Position numbers and translations under genes: made by a program. Of a stretch of DNA of 57,794 bases, positions 955 through 56,447 are shown piece after piece. The notes below the pieces were generated by a model. The model worked only from the letters and a program-made list of their open reading frames with translations, made no database searches and had not been told where the DNA came from. The stretch spans positions 1-57,794 of the forward strand of contig JAYELI010000057.1 in NCBI GenBank assembly GCA_034717435.1, in the 5' to 3' direction. This stretch comes from Candidatus Omnitrophota bacterium. GTDB lineage: Bacteria > Omnitrophota > JAUWXU01. Every line of letters begins with the position of its first letter. Position 1 is the stretch's first letter.

Positions 955-2123
955 ATATCGAGATTTCAGACAGATTAAAACAATTACCTCCCTATCTTTT
1001 TGTTGAACTTGACAGATTAAAACAGGAGGCCTTAAACAAGGGCAGGGATATAATCGATCTGGGAATAGGTGATCCTGACCGGGCAACCCCGGAGCATATT
1101 ATTAAAGAGTTACAGCGCTCTGCCGGCGACTCGGCTAATCACCACTATGCCCTGGATTGGGGTATGAGCCGGCTGCGTGAGGCAATAGCCGGCTGGTATA
1201 ACAGGAGGTTTGACGTAAGATTAGATCCAAATAAGGAAATCCTGCCGTTGATCGGTTCAAAGGAAGGTATTTCTCATATACCTTTAGGATTTATTAATCC
1301 CGGAGATGTAGTTTTGGTGCCAACCCCCGGTTATCCTCCTTATACAGCCAGCGCCATATTTGCCGGAGCAAGGCCTGTTTTTTTACCTTTATTGGAACGG
1401 AATAATTTTTTGCCTGATCTGGAAAATATAGACAGAGATGTCCTTAATAAAGCAAAGATGATGTTTTTAAATTATCCCAACAATCCTACTTCTGCCACAG
1501 CTACTAAAGAATTCTTTGAGAAAGTGGTTGATTTTGCCGATAAAAACGGGATTATCGTCTGTCATGATGCCGCTTATAGCGAGATATATTTTGACGGCAA
1601 TAAACCAATGAGTTTTTTAGAGGTTCGGGGAGCTAAAGAAGTAGGGGTGGAATTCCATTCGCTTTCCAAGACCTATAATATGACCGGTTGGCGCATAGGA
1701 TTTGTAAGCGGCAATCAGCAGATTATCAAGGGCTTAAGAACAGTAAAATCCAATATTGATTCGGGTATTTTCCAGGCAATTCAGCTTGCCGGGATAGAGT
1801 CGCTTAACGGTCCGCAGGATTCGGTTGAGCAGATGAGAGAGATCTATCAGGAAAGAAGGGACGTTTTGGTTAACGGCCTGAATTCTATAGGCTGGAATGT
1901 TTCCAAGCCGCAAGCTACTTTTTATGTCTGGGCGCATGCCCTGGATGGTTATAGTTCGTCCGAATTATCCAAGATCTTTTTAGAAAAACTAGGGATAGTT
2001 ACTACCCCGGGAGTGGGTTTTGGAGAAAGCGGGGAGGGCTATATCAGGATGGCCCTGACTGTTTGCAAAGAGAGAATAAAAGAGGCGGTAGAGAGAATTG
2101 CTGAGTTTAAAAAGTACTGTTAA
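951..2123 (+). CDS. dapL: Class I PLP aminotransferase, probable LL-diaminopimelate aminotransferase
   Basis: LPPYLFVELD N-terminal motif, PLP-lysine motif SLSKTYNMTGWRIGF, translationally coupled to dapB. Confidence 0.7.
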   Translation: MNIEISDRLKQLPPYLFVELDRLKQEALNKGRDIIDLGIGDPDRATPEHIIKELQRSAGDSANHHYALDWGMSRLREAIAGWYNRRFDVRLDPNKEILPLIGSKEGISHIPLGFINPGDVVLVPTPGYPPYTASAIFAGARPVFLPLLERNNFLPDLENIDRDVLNKAKMMFLNYPNNPTSATATKEFFEKVVDFADKNGIIVCHDAAYSEIYFDGNKPMSFLEVRGAKEVGVEFHSLSKTYNMTGWRIGFVSGNQQIIKGLRTVKSNIDSGIFQAIQLAGIESLNGPQDSVEQMREIYQERRDVLVNGLNSIGWNVSKPQATFYVWAHALDGYSSSELSKIFLEKLGIVTTPGVGFGESGEGYIRMALTVCKERIKEAVERIAEFKKYC

Positions 2124-2200
2124 ATGGTTAAATTGCTAAACTGCTAAACTGTTAAACTGTTAAACTGTTAAACTGTTAAACTGATAAATTGCTAAATGGC
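2121..2200. repeat. Tandem array of ten 8-nt words TAAAYKGN (80 nt, perfect phase)
   Basis: taaatggt taaattgc taaactgc taaactgt x4 taaactga taaattgc taaatggc. It contains the dapL stop (2121-2123) and the folK ATG (2196-2198). Confidence 0.9.
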
Positions 2201-2672
2201 TAGAATTTACATCGGCATAGGTTCAAATTTAGCAGATCGCCGGGTCAATATTGAAAAGGCCCTGAATCTTTTAAGGGAAGTAAAAAACTTAGAGATTAAG
2301 AAGATTTCCTCATTACATGAAACCGAACCCGTAGGCGGGCCTCCTGAACAGGGAAATTTCTTAAATGCTGTTTTAGGGGCTGAAACCTCTATCTTACCTT
2401 TAGAATTGTTAGCCAAATTAAAAAGCATTGAAAAAAGGTTAGGCAGAGGCAAGGGTGTTCCTGACGGTCCGCGGCCAATAGACTTAGATATTCTTTTTTA
2501 TGATGATGTTGTAATTAAGGGAAAAGAATTAGAAATACCTCATCCTAGATTACACGAAAGATTTTTTGCTTTAAAACCGCTTGTCGAAATTGCCCCGGAC
2601 TTGGTTCATCCTATATTAAATAAACAAGCCAGGCAATTACTGGCAGAGATTTGTGAAAGAAAACCTTTTTAG
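2196..2672 (+). CDS. folK: 2-amino-4-hydroxy-6-hydroxymethyldihydropteridine pyrophosphokinase (HPPK)
   Basis: IGSNL N-terminus, IDLDILFYDD, PHPRLHERFFALKPL. Confidence 0.9.
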   Translation: MARIYIGIGSNLADRRVNIEKALNLLREVKNLEIKKISSLHETEPVGGPPEQGNFLNAVLGAETSILPLELLAKLKSIEKRLGRGKGVPDGPRPIDLDILFYDDVVIKGKELEIPHPRLHERFFALKPLVEIAPDLVHPILNKQARQLLAEICERKPF

Positions 2673-2826
2673 TTTGTCGAAGCTCCTTTGTCTTTGTCGA
2701 TGCTGGTATTGAAGCTGGAGGCTCGAGGCTGGAAGCTGGGTAATTTAAGGCTGAACACGAGTTTCCACTTTCCAAGACAAGCATCGATACGAGCATCCAC
2801 AACGTTAAACCAGCATCGTATAACTT
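2673..2826. repeat. About 150-nt intergenic hairpin element (AAGCTGG / GTCGATGC words), copy A
   Basis: Terminal complementarity cgatgctggt / accagcatcg. It aligns by eye to the reverse complement of 34350-34497. Confidence 0.7.
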
Positions 2827-2844
2827 GTTAGGTAACGGATTAAA

Positions 2845-3714
2845 ATGCAGGTAATTACCGCGATAGATAAAATGAGGTCTTATGTTGAGGAGGCCAAAAG
2901 CAGGGGTAAAAAAATAGGCCTTGTTCCCACAATGGGCTGTTTTCATCAGGGTCATTTAAGCCTGATAGAAAAAGCCGGGACTAGTACGGACACAACGATT
3001 GTCAGCATTTTTGTTAATCCTGCGCAGTTTGGGCCGGATGAAGACTATTTGGCTTATCCCCGGGATGTAGAGCAGGATAGGCTCAAGGCAGCCAGAGCAG
3101 GAGTTGATGTTATTTTTGCGCCTGGCTTAAGTGAGATGTATCCGGAGAGTTACCTTACATATGTTAATGTGGAAATGATAACCGGGGTTCTCTGCGGTAA
3201 GGCGCGGCCCGGACACTTTAAGGGTGTAGCCACAGTTTGCGCCAAGCTCTTTAATATCATAAAGCCCGATATAGCCTTTTTCGGCCAAAAGGATGCACAG
3301 CAGACGATAGTTGTCAAAAGGATGGTAAAAGACCTGAATATGGATGTTGAAATAGAGGTATTGCCCATTGTCAGGGAAAAAGACGGTTTGGCAATGAGCT
3401 CAAGAAATAAGTATTTAAATACTGTTCAGCGTAAAGACGCGTTGGTCCTTTATCAGGCTTTGACTAAGGCAAAGGATATGATCAAAAGCGGCGAGAGAAA
3501 TGCCGGTATGATCATAGGGTGCACTAAACAGATAATGGACAAAGCCGGCTTAAAAATAGATTATATATCCATAGTAAATGCCAGGCAGTTGAATTCTTTA
3601 GAAGTTATCTCCGGCGAGGTATTAATTGCTTTAGCGGTGTGGGTGGGCAGGGCGAGGTTGATAGATAACATTATAGTGAACACAGAGGTTAATACTATGG
3701 GCCATGAGCTTTGA
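2845..3714 (+). CDS. panC: Pantoate--beta-alanine ligase
   Basis: PTMGCFHQGHLSLI (HIGH-like) and MSSRNKYL motifs. Confidence 0.92.
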   Translation: MQVITAIDKMRSYVEEAKSRGKKIGLVPTMGCFHQGHLSLIEKAGTSTDTTIVSIFVNPAQFGPDEDYLAYPRDVEQDRLKAARAGVDVIFAPGLSEMYPESYLTYVNVEMITGVLCGKARPGHFKGVATVCAKLFNIIKPDIAFFGQKDAQQTIVVKRMVKDLNMDVEIEVLPIVREKDGLAMSSRNKYLNTVQRKDALVLYQALTKAKDMIKSGERNAGMIIGCTKQIMDKAGLKIDYISIVNARQLNSLEVISGEVLIALAVWVGRARLIDNIIVNTEVNTMGHEL

Positions 3715-3772
3715 GTTTTAGGCTAAAAGCTCATGGCTCATAGCTCAAAGCTCAAAGCCTAAGTAGTAAACA
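3701..3772. repeat. Hairpin and word array (AGCTCAWR) overlapping the panC 3' end
   Basis: Perfect 12-bp stem gccatgagcttt (3701-3712) / aaagctcatggc (3726-3737). This is followed by tcatagctcaaagctcaaagcctaa; ttaggct (3717-3723) pairs with agcctaa (3766-3772). Confidence 0.7.
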
Positions 3773-5097: not shown

Positions 5098-5106
5098 CCT
5101 ATAAAA

Positions 5107-5233
5107 AGTGTCAGAGAGTCAAAGTGTCAGAGAGTCAGAAAGAGTCAGAAAGAATCAGAGTGTCAAAGAGTCAAAGTAAAAACTTTGACACTAGCGAACG
5201 AAGTGAGCGATGACACTTTGACTCTTTGACACT
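5107..5233. repeat. AGWGTCAR word-array hairpin element, copy 1
   Basis: Eight or more words (agtgtcag agagtcaa ...). Perfect 19-bp stem 5159-5177 / 5215-5233. The loop contains ctagcgaacgaagtgagcgatgac. Confidence 0.85.
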
Positions 5234-5247
5234 ATTTAAGAGGTGTT

Positions 5248-8567: not shown

Positions 8568-8740
8568 CACAGAGGAAATAACACAGATGATCGCAGATGA
8601 GAAGAAGCAGATGATCGCAGATGACATTGTAAAAAACCAAGTTACAATCTTGGCGCGGATAAACACAATTTTTTTAAAAATAGGGTGTTTTGCTTTTATC
8701 TGTGTCCGGCTGTATTTTTTAATCTGTGGTCATCTGTGTA
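8568..8740. repeat. CAGATGA / ATCTGTG word-array hairpin element
   Basis: The left arm holds two copies of cagatgatcgcagatga (8584-8600, 8609-8625). Inner 7-bp hairpin attgtaa/ttacaat. The right arm is ttatctgtg..aatctgtggtcatctgtgt. Confidence 0.6.
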
Positions 8741-8755
8741 TACGAGGAGGTTAGA

Positions 8756-9849: not shown

Positions 9850-10536
9850 ATGGTTTTGTTCAGAAACAAAGTATTTAATTTGGCCCTGGTGATTTCTATT
9901 CTCTGGCATTTGCTTTGTATATGCGGGGTGAGGATAGAACTCAACCCTTTTTATACCCATGAGCTTAAGAAATATCCGGCAATTTCTTTTCTGGGGCCCA
10001 TACTGGAAGAAACTGCTTTTAGAAGGGGGTTAAAAATCGGTTTGCCTGAAGCTGTTAAAGTTCCTCTCAGGAAATTGTTTTCTGATAAACTGAACTTGCG
10101 AAGTCAGTTTTCAAATGATCAAATAAGGGCCAGAGGCAAAAAAAGGATTGTTACAAGACAACAGGCAGGTAGCCCGGATAAACATGTGCTGGTTGAGTCA
10201 TTTGATAATTTAAGACAGGATTCCCAAAATGCCCCGGATTATTTACCGCGGGTTAGGCTCCAGGGGCCGGTTGAAAACAGGGCGGTTCTTTACAATCCAC
10301 CCCTGCCTTCTTTGCCTGACTGGGCGAGCCAAGAAGGGCTTAGGTTTGACTTAAAGATTAAATTCTGGGTTTCCTCCCAGGGCGTGGTGAAGCATGCCAA
10401 ACCTGAGATTTCCTGCGGGTATCCCGAATTGGACCTCTTAGGGATTAGATATATCAGTAAATGGCGATTCGGGGTTCTTGGGTCTGATTTTCAGCAAGCC
10501 GGTCAGTGGGGTATTGCGAAAATCTCTCTGGAGTGA
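9850..10536 (+). CDS. TonB/TolA-like protein with TonB_C-like C-terminus
   Basis: N-terminal TM segment. The C-terminal pattern LKIKFWVSSQGVV...ISCGYPELDLLGIRYISKWRF resembles the TonB C-terminal domain. Gene context supports the call. Confidence 0.55.
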   Translation: MVLFRNKVFNLALVISILWHLLCICGVRIELNPFYTHELKKYPAISFLGPILEETAFRRGLKIGLPEAVKVPLRKLFSDKLNLRSQFSNDQIRARGKKRIVTRQQAGSPDKHVLVESFDNLRQDSQNAPDYLPRVRLQGPVENRAVLYNPPLPSLPDWASQEGLRFDLKIKFWVSSQGVVKHAKPEISCGYPELDLLGIRYISKWRFGVLGSDFQQAGQWGIAKISLE

Positions 10537-10631
10537 TAAATTGCTAAACTGTTAAACTGATAAATTGCTAAATGGCTAAACTGTTATAGCAGTTTAACAA
10601 TTTAACCATTTAACAATATAACAATATAATT
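10537..10631. repeat. TAAAYTGY word-array hairpin element
   Basis: Six left-arm octamers at 10537-10584, a 3-4 nt loop, and a right arm gcagttta acaattta accattta acaatata acaatata ending at ATG 10632. Confidence 0.85.
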
Positions 10632-10934
10632 ATGATAAGGTTGGATTTAACAACAGCTGTTTCAATATACCAGTTTATTACGGTGTTTGGTATTTTGACT
10701 ATCTGGATTATTGTAAACTGTACTAAAAAAAGGAAGCTGACTGACCAGGATAACGCTTTTAGGCAGTGTTCGGTTTGCACCCGTCTTTATCTGGTTGATA
10801 AGGACCAGGATATAACAAGATGTCCTGGTTGTAAAAGTTATAATAAACGAGCAGATAATTTAGCAAGTGACTTTTCGGCAAACTTAGGGTCGTCTCGAGC
10901 AAAGTCGAGAGCCGATAACGAAGCTAAATTATAA
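10632..10934 (+). CDS. Hypothetical small membrane protein with CxxC...CxxC zinc-ribbon
   Basis: One TM segment (VFGILTIWIIV), then CSVC..17 aa..CPGC. The C-terminal tail is encoded by a REP-like hairpin (tctcga/tcgaga, 10893-10910). Confidence 0.45.
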   Translation: MIRLDLTTAVSIYQFITVFGILTIWIIVNCTKKRKLTDQDNAFRQCSVCTRLYLVDKDQDITRCPGCKSYNKRADNLASDFSANLGSSRAKSRADNEAKL

Positions 10935-10959
10935 CTGCGAGAAAAAAGGAGGGATAAAT

Positions 10960-11169
10960 ATGATAACCAAAATCGGGATAGTAGCCGGTGATATCTGGCA
11001 TCTTCTGGATGAAAAGGATGAAGTGGCTTTATCAGAGGTGGTTTCTTACACTGAAAAACCCAGTGAGCTTGTCCTAATGAGCCTGGGCTGGCTTGCCAGG
11101 GAGGGACATATTATCTTAAAAAAAGAGACCGATGATTATAGGGTTAGCTTAAGAAAAAAGGAATTGTAA
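10960..11169 (+). CDS. Winged-helix protein, DUF2582-like
   Basis: Pattern IG..AG.IW..L.......L........LSLGWLAREGHI. Strong SD aaggaggg. Confidence 0.7.
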   Translation: MITKIGIVAGDIWHLLDEKDEVALSEVVSYTEKPSELVLMSLGWLAREGHIILKKETDDYRVSLRKKEL

Positions 11170-11180
11170 AACAGCAGGTG

Positions 11181-15477: not shown

Positions 15478-17568
15478 GTGTCTGAAAAAGTTATAACAAA
15501 AATCGGTAGCCAGGATTTGATTATTGAAACAGGAAAAATAGCTAACTCAGCTGATGGTTCAGTTACAGTTCAACACGGAGGAACTATTGTGCTGGTAACA
15601 GTAGTTGCCTCTAAAAAGATGAAAGAAGGCATGAGCTTTCTTCCGTTGACCGTTGAGTATAGAGAAAAAACTTACGCTGCCGGTAAGATCCCCGGCGGTT
15701 TTTTTAAAAGGGAAGGAAGGCCTTCGGAAAAGGAAATACTAACTTCACGGTTGATCGACCGGCCGCTGAGGGCGCTTTTTCCCAAGGGTTTTGCCAATGA
15801 GGTCCAGGTTATCGCAACGGTTTTATCTGCCGATGAACAAAATGACCCTGATTGCCTGGCGGTAATTGGAGCTTCAGCAGCGCTGGCTGTGTCTGATGTG
15901 CCTTTTCCTGAATTAGTCGGAGCAATAAGGGTAGGCAAGGCAGGGGATAAATTCGTTATTAACCCCGCTTATTCAGAACTGGAAGAAAACGGCTTGGATT
16001 TGATAGTAGCGGGGACCAGGCAGGGCGTCATCATGCTGGAGGGCGGTGCTGACCAATGTGATGAAAAAACGATCTTAGAAGCTATAGAGTTTGGATATGA
16101 AAACCTCCTGGGGATAATCGATCTGCAGGAAAAATTGGCTAAATCCAGCGGAAAGCCTAAAAGAGAAATTGAGCTTAAGAAAACAGACCAGGAGTTTTAT
16201 CAACAAATAAAAGATTTAAGCCAGGAAAAATTGGACGAAATAGTTAAAATAGACTTGAAGGAACAACGGGAAGAAGAGTTTAACCTTCTTTGCAATCAGC
16301 TGATAGAGAAGCTGGTTACTGAAAATTCTGAAAAGACAGAAGGTGATATTAAAGATATCTTAGAGCAGATTGAATGTGAAAAAGTAAGAGAGATGATCGT
16401 GGAGCAGGGCAAAAGAATAGGAGGCCGGGACTATAAAACCGTCAGGCCGGTTGATTGTGAAACAGGCGTATTGCCCCGGGCTCATGGTTCAGCCATATTT
16501 ACCCGGGGCCAAACCCAGAGCTTAGCCACTGCTACTCTGGGAAGCAGAATGGATGAGCAGATGATAGATGCCTTAAAAGGCGTGTCTTATAAACGGTTTA
16601 TGCTGCATTACAACTTTCCTCCGTTTAGCGTCGGAGAAGTCCGTCCGATGCGCGGGACAGGCAGAAGAGAGATTGGGCACGGTGCATTAGCCGAAAGGGC
16701 AATGAAGCCGGTTATGCCTTCGGAAGATGATTTTCCTTATACCGTCAGGCTGGTCTCTGATATTTTGGAATCAAATGGCTCTTCAAGTATGGCTACTGTC
16801 TGTGGCGCTTCTTTAGCGATGATGGATGCCGGCATACCGGTGAAGGCCCAGGTTGCCGGGATAGCTATGGGTTTGGTCAAGCAAAATGGAAAGGAAGCAG
16901 TCCTCACTGATATTATCGGTTCAGAAGACCATTTCGGAGATATGGACTTTAAGGTCGCTGGAACTGCCAAAGGAATTACCGCATTGCAGTTAGATATTAA
17001 AATGAACGTGATTTCAAATGAAGTTCTTGCCCGGGCTTTGGAAGAGGCTAAGAGCGCCCGGATATTTATTCTTGATAAAATGGATCAAGTCCTGGATAAG
17101 GCCAGAAGCTCTCTTTCGCCTTACGCACCCAGGATTATCACGCTTAAAGTTAACCCGAGCAAAGTGGGGGATGTAATCGGCCCCGGCGGAAAGATTATCA
17201 GGAAGATTCAGGATGATACAGGCGCTAAGATCGAGATTGAAGACGGCGGAAAGATAAATATCGTTTCCGTAAATGAGGAAGCGAGCAATAAAGCGGTGGA
17301 GATAATTAAGAAGTTGGTCGAAGAAGCAGAAATAGGAAAGATATATTTAGCGAAGGTGGGTAAAATAACTAATTTCGGCGCCTTCTGTGAAATTTTACCC
17401 GGTCAATCCGGATTGATTCATGTCTCTGAGATGGACAAAGGATATGTTAAAAAGGTCGGGGATGTTTTAAAAGAAGGCGAGGAAGTATTGGTTAAAGTGA
17501 TTGGTATAGATGAACAAGGCAGGATTAATCTTTCCCGCAAGCAAGCTATGGGAGAAGAAAATAAATAA
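15478..17568 (+). CDS. pnp: Polyribonucleotide nucleotidyltransferase (PNPase)
   Basis: GTG start. Two RNase PH domains, a KH domain (GPGGKIIRKI) and an S1 domain. Classical rpsO-pnp order. Confidence 0.95.
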   Translation: MSEKVITKIGSQDLIIETGKIANSADGSVTVQHGGTIVLVTVVASKKMKEGMSFLPLTVEYREKTYAAGKIPGGFFKREGRPSEKEILTSRLIDRPLRALFPKGFANEVQVIATVLSADEQNDPDCLAVIGASAALAVSDVPFPELVGAIRVGKAGDKFVINPAYSELEENGLDLIVAGTRQGVIMLEGGADQCDEKTILEAIEFGYENLLGIIDLQEKLAKSSGKPKREIELKKTDQEFYQQIKDLSQEKLDEIVKIDLKEQREEEFNLLCNQLIEKLVTENSEKTEGDIKDILEQIECEKVREMIVEQGKRIGGRDYKTVRPVDCETGVLPRAHGSAIFTRGQTQSLATATLGSRMDEQMIDALKGVSYKRFMLHYNFPPFSVGEVRPMRGTGRREIGHGALAERAMKPVMPSEDDFPYTVRLVSDILESNGSSSMATVCGASLAMMDAGIPVKAQVAGIAMGLVKQNGKEAVLTDIIGSEDHFGDMDFKVAGTAKGITALQLDIKMNVISNEVLARALEEAKSARIFILDKMDQVLDKARSSLSPYAPRIITLKVNPSKVGDVIGPGGKIIRKIQDDTGAKIEIEDGGKINIVSVNEEASNKAVEIIKKLVEEAEIGKIYLAKVGKITNFGAFCEILPGQSGLIHVSEMDKGYVKKVGDVLKEGEEVLVKVIGIDEQGRINLSRKQAMGEENK

Positions 17569-17678
17569 ATTGCTAAACTGTTAAATGGCTAAATTGTTAT
17601 AAAGATCCAAAAAATATTTTATTACAGTATTTTGTTAAAAATTGATTTTAAGAGGGATAAACAAATTTAACAATTTAA
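17566..17678. repeat. TAAAYTGY word-array element with conserved internal core
   Basis: Words taaattgc taaactgt taaatggc taaattgt start on the pnp stop codon. The core tataaagatccaaaaaatattttattacag is shared with 20338-20367. The right arm acaaattt aacaattt aaATG runs into the dut start. Confidence 0.8.
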
Positions 17679-18137: not shown

Positions 18138-20308
18138 TGACTAAGGAGAGAGTAAACGAAGCAATAGGTTTACTACTGATAGCTGTTTCTGTTTTAATTA
18201 GCCTGAGCCTTATTTCCTATAATCCCGGCGATACAAACCTGATTACCTCTTCAACAAATCTCCAGATAAATAATTTCGTAGGAGTAGCCGGAGCCTATTT
18301 GGCTCAAGCCATCTTTTTTTTAATAGGAAAAGGCGCTTATTTAATCCCTTTTTTCATCGCTATCTGGGGGATATTCAAATTAAGGGGTAAAAAAACAGAG
18401 CACTTCTACCTTAAGCTGATCGGCGCTATAATTCTCCTTGTGTCTATTTCGTCAATATTTAGTCTGCAGGGAGTAGATGTTCAACGGATAGCCAATGGCG
18501 GAATTGTTGGTTTTCGGTTTTCAGAATTGAGCATTATTTACTTTGGGATGGTGGGTTCTTATGTAATATTAGCTACGTTATTTATTTTGTCTGTTTTATT
18601 GACTACAGAGCTGCTATTTTTTTCATATTTAATCCGTTTGTTCAAAGGAATATTGGCCAGGGTTATCGAACTGAGAAAAAAATCGATTAAGTACTCTGTA
18701 GCGGTCAGGCCCAAGCCAGTTAGGCCTATTCCGGTCAAGCCCGCATTGGTTAAGCCCGTTCCGGTTAAACCTCGTGTAGAAATTAGGCCTGCGGTAAAAC
18801 CAACTCCTCCCAAACATGGTTTTGAAAAAGCCGGACCAATTCCAGTTGGAGGCGCCGGTCTTAACCAAACAAACGGGTATAAACTGCCTTCTTTGGATCT
18901 CTTGCAATCTCCGCCTCCGGTAAAGGCCAGAAAGTTGATTGATAACTTGAATGCCAATGCCCGGGTTTTAGAAGAGACCTTAAAGGATTTTGGAATAGAA
19001 GTAAAGGTTACTGAAATTAACCGCGGACCAGTAATTACCAGATATGAGGTGTTACCGGCTCCGGGAGTCAAGGTAAATCGAATTATAACGTTAGGTGACG
19101 ACCTTGCTTTGGCTTTAAAGGCTGCAACAGTCCAGATAGTTGCCCCCATCCCGGGGAAGTCAGCAGTAGGGATAGAGGTCCCTAACAGCGCTATGACCCT
19201 GGTTTATTTAAAAGAAATTCTTCAGTCGTCTGAATGGCGAAATTCCTCTTTTAGATTAACCCTGTCTTTAGGAAAAGATGTTGCCGGTCATCCTATTGTT
19301 ACCGATTTGGCTAGTATGCCTCATCTTTTGATTGCCGGGGCAACCGGCAGCGGCAAGACATTGTGTATCAACAACCTGATTATCGGATTATTGTTTAAGT
19401 TTACGCCTGAAGAACTAAAATTCTTAATGATTGATCCCAAGCGGGTAGAGTTGGCTATTTTCAACAATCTTCCCCACCTGCTCTGTCCGGTGATTACAGA
19501 ACCCAATAAGGTAGTTGGAGCCTTAAATTGGGTGGTTGAAGAGATGGAATCCCGCTACAAACTTTTTGCCAGATTAGGGGTCAGGAACATAGAAGCTTAT
19601 AACGACAAATTGACAGCGGGGAAATTAAAATTAGAAGAGGAGGAGCTCAAGCGCTTACCTTATTTTATCATTGTTATTGATGAGTTGGCCGATCTTATGG
19701 TGGTTGCTCCGGATAAAATAGAAAATTCCATTACCAGATTAGCCCAGCTTTCCCGGGCAGTGGGTATTCATATCATCCTGGCTACCCAGCGGCCGTCAGT
19801 CGATGTAATTACCGGGGTGATCAAAGCTAATTTTCCTGCCCGGATATCATTCAAAGTAGCGTCCAAGGTAGATTCCCGAACAGTCTTAGATGCCAATGGC
19901 GCTGATAAGCTTTTGGGCAAAGGAGACCTTTTATTCTTAAGACCGGGCAGCTTCAAGCCTATTCGCGGCCAGGGAACCTTGATCTCTGACCAAGAAATAG
20001 AAAAAGTGATCAATTTTGTCAAATTGCAGGCCGGCCCCCGGTATAATCAAGAAATTTTGGCCCAGCAGCAAAAGAAGGACAGCCAGGGATATTTTGAAGA
20101 AGATGAGTTGTTTGAAGAAGCGGTAAAAATGGTATTAACCACAGGCCAGGCCTCTGTATCTATGCTTCAGCGCAGGATGCGCCTTGGTTACACCCGGGCG
20201 GCAAGAATGATAGATGCAATGGAGGAAAAGGGAGTGGTAGGGCCCTATAGAGGTCCAAGGCCAAGAGAGATATTGGTCGAGGACTACAAAGAAGAAGCAA
20301 CCCCTTAA
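18137..20308 (+). CDS. ftsK: DNA translocase FtsK
   Basis: TAATG overlap with the dut stop. N-terminal TM segments, Pro/Lys-rich linker, Walker A GATGSGKT, DELADLM, gamma wHTH SVSMLQRRMRLGYTRAARMID. Confidence 0.9.
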   Translation: MTKERVNEAIGLLLIAVSVLISLSLISYNPGDTNLITSSTNLQINNFVGVAGAYLAQAIFFLIGKGAYLIPFFIAIWGIFKLRGKKTEHFYLKLIGAIILLVSISSIFSLQGVDVQRIANGGIVGFRFSELSIIYFGMVGSYVILATLFILSVLLTTELLFFSYLIRLFKGILARVIELRKKSIKYSVAVRPKPVRPIPVKPALVKPVPVKPRVEIRPAVKPTPPKHGFEKAGPIPVGGAGLNQTNGYKLPSLDLLQSPPPVKARKLIDNLNANARVLEETLKDFGIEVKVTEINRGPVITRYEVLPAPGVKVNRIITLGDDLALALKAATVQIVAPIPGKSAVGIEVPNSAMTLVYLKEILQSSEWRNSSFRLTLSLGKDVAGHPIVTDLASMPHLLIAGATGSGKTLCINNLIIGLLFKFTPEELKFLMIDPKRVELAIFNNLPHLLCPVITEPNKVVGALNWVVEEMESRYKLFARLGVRNIEAYNDKLTAGKLKLEEEELKRLPYFIIVIDELADLMVVAPDKIENSITRLAQLSRAVGIHIILATQRPSVDVITGVIKANFPARISFKVASKVDSRTVLDANGADKLLGKGDLLFLRPGSFKPIRGQGTLISDQEIEKVINFVKLQAGPRYNQEILAQQQKKDSQGYFEEDELFEEAVKMVLTTGQASVSMLQRRMRLGYTRAARMIDAMEEKGVVGPYRGPRPREILVEDYKEEATP

Positions 20309-20468
20309 ACTGTTAAATGGCTAAATTGTTAAATTGTTATAAAGATCCAAAAATATTTTATTACAGATTGTTGTGAAAAAGTTATGTTTCAAAATTTAGA
20401 AGACAAATCTCCAGTTTATCAATTTAACAGTTTAGCAATTTAACCATTTAGCAATATAGCAATATATT
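20306..20468. repeat. TAAAYTGY word-array element with conserved internal core
   Basis: Left-arm words start on the ftsK stop codon. Same core as 17598-17628. The right arm has seven words ending gcaatata gcaatata ttATG. Confidence 0.8.
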
Positions 20469-21236
20469 ATGGAATCGATAGGTAAGTACTTAAAAAAAGC
20501 CCGTCAGAAAAAAGGCGTATCTCTTTTAGAGGCAGCAAACCAGACCAGGATTCATCATAGCGTGCTGGAGAACATGGAGTCTGGTAATTTTGAAAACCTT
20601 CCGAGCCCGATGTATGTTAAAGGTTTTTTAAAAAGATATGCCGAGTATTTAGGCGTAGAAAGCACTCCGTTAATTGATAAATACTTATCTACCCATCCCA
20701 AAGATCCTCAGCAGATCTTAACTCTAAAAGGCGAGAAGATTTCACCGGATTTTTTAACTAAATTTGCTGTTCCTGCCATGATAGCCGGTGTATTGATAGT
20801 TATTTTCCTGATCGCATTTTCTATTATTAAGCTCTTGCCTTTGCACAGGCCGGATGCGCCCCCTGTTAAGGCGGCAACTGCAGAAATAGAAACTAAAGAA
20901 CCAAGCCCGGTGGCTGTGGTTAGCCAGAAAAAAAATATAATTTCCAAACCAGGGCCTCTAACCTTACAGGCTATTGCTAAAGATGATCTTTGGTTAGAGG
21001 TCAGATGCGACGGAAACTTGCTTTTTCAAGGAATGTTGGCCAAGGGCAGTGTAGAGACCTGGAAAGCTGACACTAAATTCAGGCTGTCGATCGGTAATGC
21101 CGGAGCGCTTAGCTTAAGCCTGAATGATGAACCACTGGGGATACTGGGAGAAAACGGCCAAGTTTTAAAAGAAGTTATTCTGACCAAAGAGGCAGTAGAG
21201 ATAAATCCTAAATCCGAAGCACTAAATCCTAAATAA
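20469..21236 (+). CDS. rodZ: RodZ-like cytoskeleton protein (XRE-type HTH, TM, DUF4115-like C-terminus)
   Basis: N-terminal HTH (LKKARQKKGVSLLEAANQTRI), a single TM segment, and a C-terminal beta-rich domain (WLEVRCDG...). Confidence 0.7.
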   Translation: MESIGKYLKKARQKKGVSLLEAANQTRIHHSVLENMESGNFENLPSPMYVKGFLKRYAEYLGVESTPLIDKYLSTHPKDPQQILTLKGEKISPDFLTKFAVPAMIAGVLIVIFLIAFSIIKLLPLHRPDAPPVKAATAEIETKEPSPVAVVSQKKNIISKPGPLTLQAIAKDDLWLEVRCDGNLLFQGMLAKGSVETWKADTKFRLSIGNAGALSLSLNDEPLGILGENGQVLKEVILTKEAVEINPKSEALNPK

Positions 21237-21245
21237 ATTCAAATT

Positions 21246-21330
21246 AAGTCATAAGTTTTAAAGTCATAAGTCATAAGTCGTAAATTCTCGAGTTTAAAAC
21301 TTATGACTTATGACTTTTAATTGGTTTTTT
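21246..21330 (+). terminator. GTCATAA word-array hairpin, probable rho-independent terminator of rodZ
   Basis: Perfect 19-bp stem 21260-21278 / 21299-21317, with an inner taaa/ttta extension around ctcgag. T6 tract at 21325-21330. Confidence 0.55.
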
Positions 21331-34346: not shown

Positions 34347-34349
34347 AAA

Positions 34350-34497
34350 CTGCAGGTTGCAGGCTGGGAAGCTGGTTTAACGTTGTCGATGCTCATATGG
34401 GTGCTCGTTTTAGAAACTAGAGGCTTGGACATAGTGAATTATCCAGCTTCCAGCCTTCAGCTTCGATACCAGTATCGACAACGACAAACGAGCTTCT
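34350..34497. repeat. About 150-nt intergenic hairpin element (AAGCTGG / GTCGATGC words), copy B, inverted relative to copy A
   Basis: The reverse complement of 34445-34497 aligns with 2676-2740. The reverse complement of 34361-34415 aligns with 2780-2817. Confidence 0.7.
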
Positions 34498-34525
34498 ATA
34501 ACTTTGATTTTGAGAAAGGTATGTT

Positions 34526-35271: not shown

Positions 35272-35646
35272 ATGAAATTAAAGTACGATAAACAAGGTTT
35301 GATCCCGGTAATAGTGCAGGACTATAAAACCAAGGAAGTTTTGATGCTGGCTTACATGAATAAGCTGGCTTTAAAAAAGACGCTGGATACAGGAAAGGTG
35401 CACTTTTTTTCCCGTTCTCGCAAGAAATTATGGCTTAAAGGAGAAACGTCAGGCCATTACCAGAGGGTTTACGAGGTCCTTTTTGATTGTGATAAGGATA
35501 CGCTTTTGATCAGGGTTCAACAGAAAGGCGGCGCCTGCCATATGGGATACAGATCTTGTTTTTATCGAAGCGCAGGCAAAAAGTGCAAGACAGTGAACGT
35601 GGTTGGCCGGAAGGTATTCGATCCGGAAGAGGTATATAAAAAGTAA
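35272..35646 (+). CDS. hisI: Phosphoribosyl-AMP cyclohydrolase (no HisE domain)
   Basis: [23 protein letters not shown] and CHMGYRSCF motifs. Confidence 0.9.
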
Positions 35647-35787
35647 GCAGTAGGCAGTAAGCAGCAGGCAGAAAGAAACACGGTAGAAAAAAATAGACAC
35701 AGATGGGCACAGAAGGAGTAATTGGCAATGTGCAGCATAGAAATATTGGTTTACTGTTTATGATTAGCAGATAAGGGGTTATTTAAA

Positions 35788-37573: not shown

Positions 37574-37748
37574 TGAATTGCTAAACTGTTAAGTCCGTCG
37601 TGCGTTATGCGTATTGCGTTGTGCGCTATGCGCTGTGCGCTTTGCGTTTTGACGCTTTTAAATCCCGTTTTTCTTTAAAAAATAGTTTTTGTTTTTTTTG
37701 ACGCATTACGCACGACGCATAACGCATAACGCACAGCGCATAACGCAC
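37574..37748. repeat. Composite element: two TAAAYTGY-type words, then a GCGYTRTG octamer-array hairpin
   Basis: The left arm (37597-37655) reads gtgcgtta tgcgtatt gcgttgtg cgctatgc gctgtgcg ctttgcgt. The loop is T-rich. The right arm (37700-37748) is built of complementary words, with mismatches at the degenerate positions. Confidence 0.8.
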
Positions 37749-43506: not shown

Positions 43507-43549
43507 CAGGAATGAAAGATAATTAAATAGAGAAATCTAAAAATATTTT

Positions 43550-43638
43550 AACGCAGATATACGCAAATCTAACGCAGATAAACGCAGATGTTTTACTTAT
43601 CTGCGACCATCTGCGTGCAATCTGCGAGAATCTGCGTT
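43550..43638. repeat. ACGCAGAT(NN) word-array hairpin
   Basis: Left arm aacgcagat atacgcaaat ctaacgcagat aaacgcagatg. Right arm cttatctgcg accatctgcg tgcaatctgcg agaatctgcgtt. The outermost 9 bp (43550-43558 / 43630-43638) are perfect. Confidence 0.8.
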
Positions 43639-43689
43639 CAAAGTTTTCTGTGTGGTATTATTTTAAAATCTGTGTAATTAAGTATAGAT

Positions 43690-46979: not shown

Positions 46980-47624
46980 ATGAAAAAAAAGATTTTGATT
47001 GCTCCCAGTTTATTAGCAGCGGATTTTGCAAATCTATCCGCTGAAATGAAGTCAGTAGAAAAAGCAGGCGCTGATTTGTTTCACGTGGATATTATGGACG
47101 GCCATTTCGTTCCTAATATTACTATTGGCCCGGCTGTGGTCAGCGCTATCAGGGCCCAAACCAAACTGCCGATTAGTATTCACTTGATGATCGAACACCC
47201 TGATAAATATATAGATGTTTTTGCTAAAAGCGGCGGGACTTGTTTGACTTTTCACATTGAAACCTGCCCTGATCCCCTAAAAACTATCAATTTAATTAAA
47301 TCCTTTGGCCTGAAGGCTGGAGTTGCGTTTAATCCCAAGACCGGACTCGGGTGTATTAGAAATATATTAGGAGCGCTTGATATGGTGTTGTTTATGACGG
47401 TTGAGCCGGGATTTGGCGGTCAACTATTTATGCCTTCGGTTTTATCCAAAATTTCCCAGCTTCGTCAGATCTGGAACGGAGATATAGAGGTTGACGGAGG
47501 TATAAACCAGCATACAGCAAAAGAGGTCTTAAAGGCCGGAGCCAATATATTGGCTGTCGGGACAGCTATATTTAAGGCAAAAAATAGAAAGAAAGCAATA
47601 AAAGCACTGAGAAAATCTAAGTAA
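46980..47624 (+). CDS. rpe: Ribulose-phosphate 3-epimerase
   Basis: IAPSLLAADF, HVDIMDGHFVPN, MTVEPGFGGQ. An alternative TAATG-coupled start lies at 46944. Confidence 0.9.
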   Translation: MKKKILIAPSLLAADFANLSAEMKSVEKAGADLFHVDIMDGHFVPNITIGPAVVSAIRAQTKLPISIHLMIEHPDKYIDVFAKSGGTCLTFHIETCPDPLKTINLIKSFGLKAGVAFNPKTGLGCIRNILGALDMVLFMTVEPGFGGQLFMPSVLSKISQLRQIWNGDIEVDGGINQHTAKEVLKAGANILAVGTAIFKAKNRKKAIKALRKSK

Positions 47625-47784
47625 GAGTCAGAGATTCAGAGTGTCAAAGTAAAAACTCTGACACTAGCGAACGAAGTCCCCGACTTGTCCTTTGACCTGT
47701 TTTCTGAAGCCTTAGCGCAGGAAGAAGCTTTGGCGAAGGAGGAAAGGGGCGAAGTGAGCGATGACACTTTGAATCTCTGACACT
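47625..47784. repeat. AGWGTCAR word-array hairpin element, copy 2, with a nested insertion
   Basis: It shares agagtgtcaaagtaaaaactYtgacactagcgaacgaagt ... gagcgatgacactttga with 5157-5233. Stem 47628-47644 / 47764-47780 has one mismatch. Confidence 0.85.
47678..47755. mobile_element. 78-nt insertion inside the loop of the copy-2 element, bounded by a 6-nt direct duplication CGAAGT
   Basis: Copy 1 reads cgaacgaagt|gagcgatgac uninterrupted. Copy 2 has ccccgac...aggggcgaagt between these two halves. CGAAGT occurs at 47672-47677 and at 47750-47755. Confidence 0.45.
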
Positions 47785-47805
47785 AATCAAGGAGGGAGTT
47801 TTTAG

Positions 47806-49814: not shown

Positions 49815-51602
49815 ATGTCTATCAAAATAGATAAAATAAGAAATTTCAGCATAATTGCCCATATAGATCACGGAAAGTCTACGTTGGCCGACAGGTTACT
49901 GCAGTTTACCGGAGCGATCAGCGACCGCGAATTCAGAAATCAGGTTCTTGATGATATGGATCTGGAGCGGGAAAGAGGGATTACGATTAAGGCCCGGGCA
50001 GTGAGGATAGCTTATAAAGGTTATTGGCTTAACCTTATTGATACGCCCGGACACGTAGATTTTACTTACGAAGTGGCTAAATCCCTGGCAGCATGCGAAG
50101 GGGCTTTGCTTTTGGTGGATGCGGCCCAGGGGGTAGAGGCCCAGACTGTTTCAACTTTGCATCTGGCCTTGGAGCACAATTTAAAAATTATCCCGATAAT
50201 CAATAAGATCGATCTGATTAATGCTGATCCGGAGAGGGTTAAGCGTCAGCTGAAAGATGTCTTGAATATTGAAACCGATCAGGTAATTCTGGCATCGGCC
50301 AAAGAGGGCATAGGGACAGAGGAGGTGCTTGATGCTGTTGTTTCGCGTATACCTGCGCCCAAAGGCAAAAAGGACAGCTCTCTTCAGGCGCTTATATTTG
50401 ATTCCAAATTTGACGTTTTTAAAGGCGTTGTTGTCTATTTACGGGTAATGAAAGGCTGTATTTGCCCTCGAATGAAGATTAAATTTATGTCTACCGGCAG
50501 TATATATGAAGTTGAAGAAGTGGGTGTTTTTACGCCTCGGCCTTGCAAGGTAGATGAATTGGCTTGTGGACAGGTGGGATATATCAGCTGTAATATAAAA
50601 GAGACGGGAGTAGTAAGCGTTGGCGATACTATTACTAATGCCCTGTTGCCCTGCAAAGAGAGACTTCCCGGTTATAAAAAACTTATTTCGTTGGTATTCA
50701 GCAGCCTTTACCCCGTAAACAGCAAGGATCATTCTTTGCTGCGCGAAGGGCTTGCCAAGTTAAAACTTAATGATGCGGGCTTGGTATATGAGCCGGAAAG
50801 TTCCGCCTCTCTCGGCCTGGGTTTCAGGTGCGGTTTTTTAGGGCTTTTGCATATGGAAATAGTCCAGGAAAGGCTGGAAAGAGAGTTCGACCTTAATTTG
50901 ATAACCACTGCTCCCAGCGTTACCTACCAGATTAAAGAAAAAGACGGCCGGGTTATTACTGTAGATGACCCCTCCAAGTTTCCGCCCAACAATAAAATAA
51001 CCCAGATGTTCGAGCCATACATCAGGGCATTTATGATTATCCCTAAGGATTCCCTGGGCGCGATAATGGAATTGTCTCACTCCCGGCGGGGGGTCTATAA
51101 GGGCACGGAATATTTGGATGTAGAAAGAGTGTTGTTGACATATGAACTTCCTCTATCGGAGATACTGGTCGATTTTTACGATAAGATAAAATCGATTACC
51201 CGGGGTTATGGCTCCCTGGATTATGAATTTATCGGCTATTTTCCCACGGCTCTGGTAAAATTAGATATTTTGATTAATGGAGAAATTTGTGAAAACCTGT
51301 CTTCAATAGTATATAAGAAAGAGGCCCGGGCAAGAGGACAAGTGTTGGCCGGCAGGCTGAAGCAGTTGATTCCCCGGCAGCTTTTCGAAGTAGTAATTCA
51401 AGCGGCAATCGGCAGCCAGGTGATTACCCGGGAGTCTGTCAGGCCTTTGGGTAAACACGTGACAGGTAAATGTTATGGAGGGGATATTACCAGAAAACGC
51501 AAGCTCTGGGAAAAGCAGAAGGCGGGGAAAAAACGCATGAAGCAGTTTGGAAAAGTCAAAATTCCCCAGGAAGCGTTTATGGCGATCTTGACTACCAAAT
51601 AA
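49815..51602 (+). CDS. lepA: Elongation factor 4
   Basis: [23 protein letters not shown] and NKIDL motifs, plus the LepA C-terminal domain. Confidence 0.95.
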
Positions 51603-51740
51603 ATGGTTAAACTGCTAAATGGCTAAATGGTTAAATTGCTAAACTGAAGATTTGTATCCTGAATTTTAAAACGCATTTTTTTACAATAAGTTACGTTAAA
51701 ATAATTTTTTAGTTCAACAATTTAACAGTTTAACAATTTA
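51600..51740. repeat. TAAAYTGY word-array element
   Basis: Six left-arm octamers start on the lepA stop codon (51600-51647). The loop is about 65 nt. The right arm is tcaacaatttaacagtttaacaattta (51714-51740). Confidence 0.8.
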
Positions 51741-51757
51741 TAAAGAGGATTGATTAA

Positions 51758-53618: not shown

Positions 53619-53628
53619 GGAGAACATT

Positions 53629-54771: not shown

Positions 54772-54847
54772 AAAAACATTCTATAAAGAGTATAGATGAT
54801 TACAGAGATTAAAGGACAGAAACTGAACATTATATCGGGAGGTTAAG

Positions 54848-55819
54848 ATGTTTAGAAACAAGGTGTTGCTGGGCAGTTTGGCTGTTTTAATCTTACTCGG
54901 ATTGACCAGCCAGGATGCATTTGCCGGAACCAGGAAAAGGAAGCGCAAGAAAGAGGTGGTTGTTGAACTGCCGTCCCTTCCGCCTTTGGTAGGGCCAAGG
55001 AAAATGATCGCGGTTATGGACTTTGAAAATAAGGCCGGAGCAGCGTCTAATTTTAGGATTGGTTCAGGTATGGCGGAAATGCTTACCACTGCTTTGATAA
55101 ATAGCGGGCGGTTTATTGTGGTGGAGCGCCAGGCTATTCAGGATGTTCTGGCTGAACAGGATTTTGGGGCAAGCGGCCGCACCGCTCCGGAAGCAGCAGC
55201 TAAATTCGGAAGGATTTTGAATGCCCAGATTATGGTCAGGGGCGCGGTAACGGAATTTGCGCAAAGCACCAGCGGCGGAGGCCAGGGATTTAGCTATAAA
55301 GGCTTTTCTCTGGGAGTGAGCGGAGGAAAAGCGCATGTAGCGGTAAATATCAGGCTTTATGATTCTACCACCGGCCAGGTTCTTGATTCTCAAAGGTGCG
55401 AGGGCTTAGCCAGTTCTTCCGGGCTTTCGTTCGGTTATTCTGAATCGGATTGGGCGGTAGGAACTTCTACGTTTAAAGCCACGCCTCTGGGAGAAGCGAC
55501 ACAGCGCGCTATAGATGATGCAGTATATTTTATTGCCCGGCGAATGCAGGATGTTGTCTGGGAAGGCCGGATAGTGACGGTAAAAGGTCCGGTTATCTAC
55601 CTGAATTGCGGAGCAACTTCAGGTGTGCAGGCAGGAGATAGTTTTAATGTTTACAGGCCGGGAGAGGAATTGATCGACCCGGCAACCGGTATTTCTCTCG
55701 GCTCTGAGGTCACCATGCTTGGAAGGGTTCAGATAGCAGAGGTGCAGGATAAGTTTTCAAAGGCAGCAGCGGTTAGCGGAACAGGATTCAAGCGGGGAGA
55801 CATTATCCGGTTTGAGTGA
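54848..55819 (+). CDS. CsgG-family protein with an extra C-terminal beta domain
   Basis: KMIAVMDFENKAGA...GSGMAEMLTTALINSGRFIVVERQAIQDVLAEQDFGASG...GRILNAQIMVRGAVTEF...VAVNIRLYDSTTGQVL. Signal peptide without a lipobox Cys. Confidence 0.75.
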   Translation: MFRNKVLLGSLAVLILLGLTSQDAFAGTRKRKRKKEVVVELPSLPPLVGPRKMIAVMDFENKAGAASNFRIGSGMAEMLTTALINSGRFIVVERQAIQDVLAEQDFGASGRTAPEAAAKFGRILNAQIMVRGAVTEFAQSTSGGGQGFSYKGFSLGVSGGKAHVAVNIRLYDSTTGQVLDSQRCEGLASSSGLSFGYSESDWAVGTSTFKATPLGEATQRAIDDAVYFIARRMQDVVWEGRIVTVKGPVIYLNCGATSGVQAGDSFNVYRPGEELIDPATGISLGSEVTMLGRVQIAEVQDKFSKAAAVSGTGFKRGDIIRFE

Positions 55820-55825
55820 AAAGAG

Positions 55826-56317
55826 CTATTGTGAACCGCGTAAAATCTTCATCCGCTTTATTACATAAGCAGATATTATAAGAATAATAAGGAAGAGAAT
55901 CAGGAAGTTATTAGCGTAAAGACGTTCGAGAAAGCAGGGATTTGCAGAAAAAGATAAGTCTTTAAGACCGGTTAAAAATATAATACTGACAGCCCCCAAA
56001 TGCAGAAGCTGGTCAGCCAGAAATGACCAGATTTTAGCCCTTCCTTTATCAACATACCTGACTTTTAGGCAATCAATAGCAAAATGGCTGGCTCCCAGAA
56101 ATAAAAACAATCCCCAGATAGCCTTAATCCCTAAAAAAGGCCAGGAAAGGCCGACAGCGCAGACAACGAATATCAATGCATGAAGAAACTGGCCCCAGAG
56201 GTTTTTTATCTTGAGCTTATAGATTATGTCGGGCTGCAAAGGGAAATCTGCTAAAAAATGCGCAAGAATAAGACGCAGGAATAAAAACATCATTCCTCCT
56301 TTTCCGGGAAATAACAA
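55826..56317 (-). CDS. DUF3307-like integral membrane protein
   Basis: ILAHFLADFPLQ motif and several TM segments. Confidence 0.6.
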   Translation of the reverse strand: MLFPGKGGMMFLFLRLILAHFLADFPLQPDIIYKLKIKNLWGQFLHALIFVVCAVGLSWPFLGIKAIWGLFLFLGASHFAIDCLKVRYVDKGRAKIWSFLADQLLHLGAVSIIFLTGLKDLSFSANPCFLERLYANNFLILFLIILIISAYVIKRMKILRGSQ

Positions 56318-56334
56318 CTAACAAATAGCGAGAA

Positions 56335-56447
56335 AATTAAATTTCTAATTGCCCTAATTAACCTAATTAATGCCCAATCCCCAATGTCCAAATTTTGTTA
56401 TTAGTTATTGGGTCATTGGAGGGTTATTTAGGTCAATTAGAAATTAG
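56335..56447. repeat. CTAATTRR / CCAAT word-array hairpin element between two minus-strand genes
   Basis: The left arm aatttctaattgccctaattaacctaattaatgcccaatccccaatgtccaa is roughly complementary to ttgttattagttattgggtcattggagggttatttaggtcaattagaaattag. The minus-strand stop codon (56444-46) is the first TAA word. Confidence 0.65.

Follow-up and report, generated by a model that had tools for sequence, protein, structure and literature searches.

Intervening sequences (IVSs) of bacterial ribosomal RNA (rRNA) genes and tandem heptamer repeats at gene boundaries are the closest described systems to the elements analysed here, which are arrays of short words, mostly paired with a complementary array, in the intergenic gaps of a 57,794-nucleotide (nt) contig of a Candidatus Omnitrophota bacterium (JAYELI010000057.1, assembly GCA_034717435.1; this whole stretch is called the window, and positions given without another locus name refer to it). 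The IVS of the Coxiella 23S rRNA gene is described as a selfish element of 428 nt with a 28-bp terminal inverted-repeat stem; it carries two to three tandem heptamers, varying in copy number between strains, directly before the start of S23p, and is excised by RNase III, which cuts at the first repeat, while horizontal transfer is suspected (PMC4990558). IVP open reading frames (ORFs) and short ORF-less IVSs also occur in the rRNA genes of bacteria of the candidate phyla radiation (CPR) (PMC11270868). The distribution of rRNA IVSs, which are known from Coxiella, Leptospira, Salmonella and CPR bacteria, is sporadic, and horizontal transfer is suspected for them as a group. Like the window elements, they have been inserted and have inverted repeats at their ends, which pair to give a long stem; the heptamers in the Coxiella IVS arm before the ORF start are comparable to the tandem-word arms of the window, and PF05635 (S23p / 23S_rRNA_IVP) is bracketed in other phyla by arrays of the window's T type (TAAAYKGN). 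The window elements differ in lying at stop-start junctions of mRNAs and not in helices of 23S or 16S rRNA, in having no ORF, in comprising about ten word families and in their very high density.

Long simple sequence repeats (LSSRs; Mrazek 2007), cyanobacterial short tandemly repeated repetitive (STRR) sequences and TAACTGA repeats are tandem intergenic words of 7-8 nt, in a class defined by units of 5-11 nt that abut a stop or start codon, a definition that also fits the window arrays. The TAACTGA heptamer repeats of Beggiatoaceae, Cyanobacteria and Bacteroidetes overlap the upstream stop codon and end zero to a few nt before the start, with a Shine-Dalgarno (SD) sequence being rare and with copy number changing in whole-word steps; they are direct only, a single inverted set being present among 170 in the Beggiatoa genome (MacGregor 2015, PMC4679880). 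Heptamers dominate in the LSSR literature as summarised in the same paper. The window arrays at 2121 and 35647 are exactly of this direct-repeat kind, but the rule in the window is a paired complementary array that gives a hairpin, with strict polarity and family-specific cores.

Repetitive extragenic palindromic (REP) sequences, bacterial interspersed mosaic elements (BIMEs) and REP doublets forming hairpins (REPINs) are likewise intergenic, hairpin-forming, present in many copies and found inside operons, and the window contains a gene resembling those of REP-associated tyrosine transposases (RAYTs). However, the arms in the window are arrays of three to ten words of 7-10 nt and not single palindromic units of 20-40 nt, the elements are not associated with the RAYT-like gene, and duplications are present at their junctions. 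[quoted passage not shown] Unlike them, the window elements end in tandem arrays, no partner transposase with matching ends is known, and the gene in their larger relatives encodes a four-helix-bundle protein and not a transposase. The foldback (FB) transposons of Drosophila have long inverted arms of tandem short units around a variable middle, with or without genes; the resemblance is one of design only, as these transposons are eukaryotic, kilobase-scale and unrelated in sequence to the window elements. For the Correia repeat-enclosed elements of Neisseria, binding or cleavage by RNase III is reported (PMC2649163). A previous reading of the window, made from its letters without database searches (the sequence-only reading), knew of no described function for the hairpin elements; to say that nothing similar has been described is too strong, given that heptamer arrays abutting stop or start codons are known (PMC4679880) and that the Coxiella IVS combines inverted ends with heptamers (PMC4990558). 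The literature that we searched contained no array-bounded IVP cassettes in protein-coding operons, no ORF-less array hairpins at intercistronic junctions and no description of such elements in Omnitrophota.

Foldback elements in the intergenic gaps

The window elements are foldbacks with tandem-word arms at stop-start junctions, and they have been inserted, dispersed and turned over. With a probability of roughly 0.55, the gaps hold a multi-family population of ORF-less, IVS-type foldback elements whose arms grow by slippage. Tandem Repeats Finder (TRF) reported arrays of period 7-10 at every coordinate at which the sequence-only reading had placed a word array. Intergenic sequence makes up 6.9% of the window, yet holds 23 of the 29 merged arrays (binomial p=6e-22), which disposes of random scatter within the window. 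TRF returned 26 rows in the gaps as against 0-2 after shuffling of the gaps, array sequence accounts for 22% of the intergenic bases, and a pattern of three TAAAYKGN words matched 25 times where none was expected.

The full layout of array, loop and complementary array was recovered by inverted-repeat search and folding in 13 of the 21 gaps of at least 68 nt, so that the layout earlier ascribed to nearly every long gap is found in most of them. Gaps 9771, 10935, 25837, 27140 and 54772 have no arrays. The complementary partner array is present in 13 of the 16 array-bearing gaps, with both arms belonging to the same family in all 13 hairpins; the arrays at 2121 and 35647 are direct only, the element at 17566 has a rudimentary right arm, and the T words at 37574 merely precede an R-family hairpin. 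The arms are 21-49 nt long and 71-95% complementary, i.e. terminal inverted repeats forming a long stem, and several stems have at least 20 near-continuous base pairs; RNAfold z-scores are listed in Table 1. About ten word families (T, S, R, H, Q, C, G, A, N and K) can be counted, in keeping with the earlier figure of at least eight, and they have a common layout but no common sequence. The density is approximately one element per 4.4 kb.

A contig of the independent Logan assembly (run SRR26901924) is 99.9% identical over the whole 5098 array and stops where the two S-family copies become identical. The arrays are therefore not an artefact of one assembly, an outcome that the sequence-only reading had left to be checked.

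Insertion, dispersal and turnover at operon junctions

The gene order dapB-aminotransferase-folK-panC-(panD)-nadA-nadX is syntenic in ten Omnitrophota metagenome-assembled genomes (MAGs), where the junctions are mostly ATGA or TGATG overlaps or measure 0-35 nt. The gaps at those junctions of the dapB-to-nadX block in the window measure 72, 172, 68 and 150 nt. Since the junctions are overlapping or tiny in relatives, the elements in the window are insertions. The compactness of the relatives' operons, together with Pfam confirmation of panC/panD, nadA/nadX, hisB/hisA and trpC/trpF, upholds the claim that elements sit inside what should be single operons. The presence/absence differences anticipated for orthologous junctions were also found: the same junction is empty or holds another family in syntenic relatives (Table 1), including locus L002, which is about 85% identical to the window at the nucleotide level within genes.

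Copies at different junctions also have more than words in common. The T copies at 17566 and 20306 have a non-repetitive core of 38 nt with 97% identity, although they lie 3' of the unrelated genes pnp and ftsK, and the S copies at 5098 and 47625 have cores of 35-36 nt in common. Nested inserts are present in the S family: one of 25 nt (5192-5216, flanked by TGACAC) occurs in both copies, and one of 78 nt in the loop (47678-47755, flanked by CGAAGT) is confined to the 47625 copy. The A-family element at 3690..3770 and the L010 element both contain CTATGAGCCATGAGCT (16/16), but on opposite strands. Relative to transcription, copies of the G family and of the A family point either way, the G copies at 2673 and 34347 being opposite to each other by arm comparison, whereas the T, S and N copies keep one; for example, the N copy at 56330 keeps the gene-relative orientation of the L002 and L161 copies.

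The elements also reach into the neighbouring genes. The first word of the 2116..2199 array is the TAA stop codon of the aminotransferase gene and its last word, TAAATGG, holds the ATG of folK; the TAAATCC array of 4.7 units at 21202-21234 encodes the final codons of the rodZ-like gene; and the A-family left arm at 3695-3715 encodes the final codons and the stop of panC. Correspondingly, the last ten or so PanC residues differ between the window and L002, those of the window being derived from this arm.

Short apparent duplications of the former junction accompany several inserts. The clearest is at panD/nadA in L002 (1277-1366), where an 87-nt insert has the 8-nt TAAAATAA on both sides and the window site is empty; others are ATGAAG at nadA/nadX of L002, TGATAA at 10537 in the window, and TAAATAAAT / TAAATGAAT flanking the T-family element at 17566..17678. 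As a separate observation, the L002 insert at 1277-1366 is a plain inverted repeat at an operon junction and is not built from words, and the same holds for a 162-nt long inverted repeat at the dapB/aminotransferase junction of locus L011 (3736-3899).

Table 1. Word-array elements of the window and their counterparts at orthologous junctions of relatives. The coordinate scored is given in brackets after the z-score where it differs from the first position.
Locus	Positions	Strand	Feature	Junction or context	RNAfold z-score
Window	166..222	+	T-family R-type words (CAGTTTAA / CTATTTAA / CAATTT), without left array	upstream of dapB	
Window	2116..2199	+	T family (TAAAYKGN), direct only, 10 words	aminotransferase gene to folK (HPPK)	-0.7
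Window	2673..2844	+	G-family hairpin (GAAGCTGG + GTCGATGC words)	HPPK/panC	-2.6
Window	3690..3770	+	A-family hairpin (AGCTCAW); left arm 3695-3715, right arm 3723-3758	panC/panD	-3.0 (3715)
Window	5098..5247	+	S-family hairpin (AGWGTCAR), apex 5170-5189	nadA/nadX	-9.5
Window	8568..8745	+	C-family hairpin (CAGATGA / ATCTGTG)	TPR gene/exbB	-2.5
Window	10534..10631	+	T-family hairpin without SD; TGATAA on both sides	from stop codon to ATG	-3.8 (10537)
Window	17566..17678	+	T-family element: left array, core 17598-17627, rudimentary right arm	pnp/dut	
Window	20306..20468	+	T-family hairpin; core 20338-20366 as in 17566 copy	ftsK/rodZ-like gene	-4.3 (20309)
Window	21202..21320	+	TAAATCC array 21202-21234, then H-family hairpin (GTCATAA / TTATGAC) 21245-21320		-7.0 (21237)
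Window	34347..34525	+	G-family hairpin	hisB/hisA	-4.1
Window	35642..35675	+	K-family direct-only array (AGTAAGC / AGCAGGC)	3' of hisI	-1.0
Window	37574..37748	+	two T words outside the hairpin, then R-family hairpin (GCGYTRTG / CAYARCGC), arms 37600-37647 and 37701-37748	trpC/trpF	-5.5
Window	43541..43647	+	Q-family hairpin (ACGCAGATNN / ATCTGCG)	dtd/macro-NUDIX	-5.3 (43507)
Window	47622..47795	+	S-family hairpin	rpe/phosphomutase	-4.2 (47625)
Window	51600..51744	+	T-family hairpin; TAAATG at each border	lepA/lepB	
Window	56330..56445	-	N-family hairpin (CTAATTRR + CCCAATG words)	between two minus-strand genes	-5.4 (56318)
L002			N family (in window at 56318); A in window	panC/panD	
L002			R family (in window at 37597); S in window	nadA/nadX	
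L010 (about 55% protein identity)			A family, 16/16 identical stretch; T direct-only array in window	aminotransferase gene/folK	
L006 (about 60% protein identity)			GTAAAAC hairpin; C in window	TPR gene/exbB	
L011 (about 60% protein identity)			empty, 8 nt; C in window	TPR gene/exbB	

PF05635 cassettes with the same ends in other phyla

A strict screen, which required a TRF array to have a reverse-complement array no more than 300 nt away, singled out the window and the Omnitrophota loci L006, L008 and L010 alone, with no positives among about 65 non-Omnitrophota loci. A scan of metagenomes for T words found at least 120 loci on contigs with a GC content of 16% to 66%. Among the matches listed, nearly all are intergenic, and the T array has its complement on the downstream side in 16 of 113 but on the upstream side in 0 of 118, with none in shuffled flanks. 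Among the 120 matches listed, the array begins at a stop codon in 40 of type F as against 8 of type R, and abuts a start codon in 38 of type R as against 18 of type F. This placement agrees with that published for the TAACTGA repeats, which are direct only (PMC4679880). No close relative is among the matches listed, the top protein identity being 43%. Viral contigs gave only 50 T-array matches, mostly in giant-virus bins. One viral contig, L246, encodes a Ulp1-like protease, a GIY-YIG nuclease and a D12 methyltransferase, as in a virophage- or polinton-like element, and has 12 perfect TAAATTGC units at one end (1-100) and a complementary array near the other (10656-10750); these arrays are probably unrelated to the bacterial elements.

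Elsewhere, arrays of this kind flank a gene, and the sole cargo seen inside them is PF05635. In L190, L095, L178, L141 (two genes) and L086, a gene that Pfam confirms as PF05635 stands between an array and the complementary array, with the word family varying, and contexts chosen by protein homology alone have the same bracketing (L252, L253, L256, L257, L258, L260 and L262). In L252, L253, L256 and L257 (Flavobacteriia and Sphingobacteriia; positions about 1100-1620 of each), the gene is part of the rml operon and has words on one side and the complementary words on the other, the hosts being Flavobacterium, Sphingobacterium, Gaetbulibacter and Confluentibacter. The Patescibacteria loci L258 and L260 and the Chlorobi locus L262 have T-type arrays on either side of the gene, which span from the upstream stop codon to the PF05635 start and from the PF05635 stop to the next ATG. 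These PF05635 proteins are 67-75% identical across phyla, and the cargo-bearing relatives from Bacteroidota, Patescibacteria and Chlorobi agree with the T family of the window both in polarity and in their TAAAYTG / CARTTTA arrays. T-type arrays are thus the ends of a cross-phylum PF05635 cassette. We also note that in cultured Flavobacteriia and Sphingobacteriia the PF05635 gene stands at one conserved place, in the dTDP-rhamnose operon after rmlB.

Arm structure and a model for the elements

As had been noticed from the sequence, arm-to-arm mismatches concentrate at degenerate word positions: positions 5, 6 and 8 of the word account for 13 of the 14 mismatches in the T family. Over 772 aligned arm positions, a wobble test counted 38 G·U pairs, 35 A·C pairs and 91 transversions, i.e. 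no sense-strand wobble bias, with the element at 8568 alone showing a clear sense-strand G·U excess (9 vs 1). In a mirror-order test the real word order had no advantage over permuted ones (0.04-0.71 of the permutations equalled or exceeded its score), and the arms are therefore not conserved inverted duplicates. Taken together, the lack of wobble bias and of mirrored order argues that the complementarity arises from the common word and not from fine-scale selection on pairing or from a conserved mirror duplication. Expansion of the slippage type, which the sequence-only reading had proposed, agrees with the runs of identical adjacent words at 2121, where TAAATGG stands at both borders and no complementary arm is present, and with higher-order TRF periods of 14, 16, 21 and 24 nt.

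In each element, an array of a word of 7-10 nt is followed by a core or loop specific to the family and then by the array of the inverse complement. Such units were inserted into the stop-start junctions of operons that are compact, and often overlapping, in relatives, and have been replaced over time, with some of them supplying the stop codon or the final codons of the upstream gene. The arms would change by replication slippage, their words being reshuffled independently in each arm. Judging from their common ends, the window elements may derive from PF05635 cassettes. Co-transcribed with its neighbours, an element would fold into a long imperfect hairpin whose base sets the upstream stop beside the downstream start; global folding with flanks was too noisy for quantitative use of stop-start distances. 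The hairpin could then be looped out or cut by RNase III, as are rRNA IVSs and Correia elements, so that the operon is kept intact, and the elements would plausibly be tolerated because of this juxtaposition of stop and start and of this looping out or cutting. Among possible roles, that of an RNA-processing site appears best supported, by analogy with rRNA IVSs of the same build that are cut by RNase III (PMC4990558). We infer both mobility and RNase III cutting for the window elements.

A wider reading, which we offer tentatively and regard as less probable than its negation, is that inverted tandem-word arrays and the Avd-like four-helix-bundle protein of PF05635 together constitute an unrecognised, cross-phylum class of mobile element that has no known transposase or recombinase and inserts where looping out, or removal by RNase III, is open to an RNA hairpin, i.e. 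in rRNA helix loops, giving the classical IVSs, and at operon stop-start junctions. The Omnitrophota hairpins would then be its non-autonomous derivatives, which would have spread to the majority of this genome's operon junctions. How rRNA IVSs arose and move, and what the very widespread PF05635 proteins do, have been open questions since the 1990s, and the PF05635 link gives hundreds of comparable insertion events for study, with an array-bounded design at operon junctions both with and without an ORF and with empty and filled sites in relatives. RNase III cleavage, retention of translational coupling and binding of the arrays by the protein are proposed steps that are each amenable to testing in E. 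coli.

Several points weigh against the reading of the elements as IVS-type foldbacks and against their tie to the cassettes. The apparent junction duplications are short (4-9 nt), variable in length and partly degenerate, and could be mimicked by selection for a retained stop and start. Neither a transposase nor any other mobility enzyme was found for the elements within the window. A PF05635 gene is absent from the window, as is any detectable remnant of such a gene from the loops, and its link to the IVP cassettes consists of common word arrays, polarity and junction position, and concerns only the T family. The contigs of the metagenome scan are taxonomically unplaced. Finally, the direct-only arrays (2121, 35647 and most T arrays of the metagenomes) are equally well explained by slippage in situ.

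Alternative explanations

The alternative that survives best, although we consider it unlikely, extends this last point to all of the elements, which would be LSSRs arisen by polymerase slippage in place at TAAATG-like junctions, with fold-back template switching into the other arm, and would be immobile, near-neutral filler. The dominance of heptamers, as in the LSSR literature (PMC4679880), the word runs and borders at 2121, the higher-order periods of 14-24 nt, the unmirrored word order and the absence of wobble bias are all as expected of such a process, and so are the 'morphing' of words along the array in L188 and the occurrence of T arrays on contigs whose GC ranges from 31% to 66%. Slippage in place does not account, however, for non-repetitive cores common to copies 3' of unrelated genes, for the same composite families at different junctions of genomes that are only 55-85% identical, for other families at the same junction of a close relative, or for T arrays that bracket a conserved cargo gene in three other phyla.

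Ranking behind it, and improbable in our judgement, is the idea that these are dedicated cis-acting RNA elements, in which A/U-rich, G-poor arrays serve as SD-independent landing pads or tracks for S1, cold-shock proteins or similar factors, while the hairpin enforces coupling or stabilises the upstream mRNA. R-type arrays run into the ATG, nine of the 14 genes downstream of elements have no SD within 20 nt, and the arrangement of F at stops and R at starts is far commoner than the reverse among the metagenome matches listed; the same proposal has been made for TAACTGA repeats (MacGregor 2015, PMC4679880). The G·U excess of the 8568 element and the constant gene-relative orientation of the N, S and T copies are also consistent with it. 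Against this, the elements are dispensable, since relatives do without them at these junctions, the G family and the A family are each found in either orientation, neither an overall wobble bias nor a compensatory order is seen, and about ten unrelated words cannot all be the site of one factor.

Mobilisation by the RAYT-like gene at 24889-25836, as slippage-expanded REP/REPIN-type elements, had been suggested by the sequence-only reading and is not borne out; we consider it very improbable. The encoded protein does have a Y1_Tnp domain (E 5e-14), an HUH motif (HYH) and a tyrosine motif (YIHLNP), and the elements are intergenic hairpins, as REPINs are. However, it scores 70.5 bits against the NCBIfam cut-off of 80 bits for REP-associated transposases, and the flanks of 24889-25836 hold no word array. 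A homologue with 34% identity, located between two tRNA genes on a 1.8-kb contig (L142, 470-1250), is flanked by GC-rich CACCCCGGGGGTG palindromes, while word elements stand elsewhere on that contig (a GTAAAGC/GTAAAAC hairpin at 275-350 and, at 1575-1650, a T array with an ordinary terminator after it). Moreover, one RAYT recognises one REP type, as against the roughly ten word families here, and junction duplications are not expected from HUH/Y1 transposition. Pfam identified no DDE transposase in the window either, and no autonomous partner with matching ends was found there. Better candidates than the word arrays for the substrate of the RAYT-like gene are the GC-rich, REP-like repeats located at 40908-41040 and at both ends of the window.

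A role as transcription terminators or as promoter-terminator insulators between transcription units is the least likely of all, since, although long hairpins stand directly 3' of stop codons, the stems lack a U tract behind them, sites resembling terminators or promoters are as frequent in the window as in shuffled sequence (the terminator-like ones mostly outside the elements, apart from a marginal one within the 37600 array), the operons interrupted by the elements show translational coupling in relatives, and the one convergent gap uses ordinary GC-rich terminators instead. Chi sites, iterons and ribbon-helix-helix (RHH) operators were dropped as readings of the words because about ten unrelated words have one layout, and integron attC sites because the flanking genes are syntenic core genes.

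The source stretch and other observations

The best genome matches of the window's NadA are Candidatus Omnitrophota MAGs, the closest (MAG005, L002) being 90% identical, and NadA proteins of ten further Omnitrophota MAGs are about 60% identical to it. Exact-protein look-ups for HPPK and for the gene at 10632 returned no record. Fifty-six of the 60 genes lie on the plus strand, and those checked with Pfam are all housekeeping genes (dapB, folK, panC/D, nadA/X, exbBD, rbfA, truB, rpsO, pnp, dut, ftsK, recA, alaS, his and trp genes, lepA and lepB), with the Y1_Tnp protein at 24889 as the sole exception. Scans of the window with Rfam at gathering thresholds gave no match and with ARAGORN no tRNA or tmRNA, and the window has no rRNA.

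The GC-rich repeats form a second, REP-like repeat class. Inverted copies (GTCATCCTGAGGGAGCGTAAGCGACCGAAGGA...) occupy positions 1-140 and 57590-57794 and include tandem units of 33 nt (x2.4, 29-106) and of 28 nt (x2, 57598-57653). At 40908-41040, two GC-rich units of 62 nt lie in frame in the NTP_transferase gene 40427-41449 (residues 161-205), resembling insertions of Rickettsia palindromic elements. The top sigma-70-like match of the window, TTGACA-17-TAAAAT (11/12), is found at 24854-24882, just 5' of the RAYT-like gene.

The arrays also have practical consequences, in that they break short-read assemblies, rewrite the 3' ends of genes and the contexts of start codons, and will mislead the prediction of operons, terminators and ribosome-binding sites in MAGs of Omnitrophota, CPR and Bacteroidota. 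A GTAAGCG heptamer array at the aminotransferase/folK junction of L005 (4294-4375) is broken by a run of N, short-read assemblies being gapped by such arrays. The 243-nt 'gap' at 10935-11177 is explained by an ORF of about 70 amino acids (10960-11172), missing from a list of ORFs that began at 80 amino acids, which encodes a winged-helix protein of the DUF2582 family (E 2e-13).

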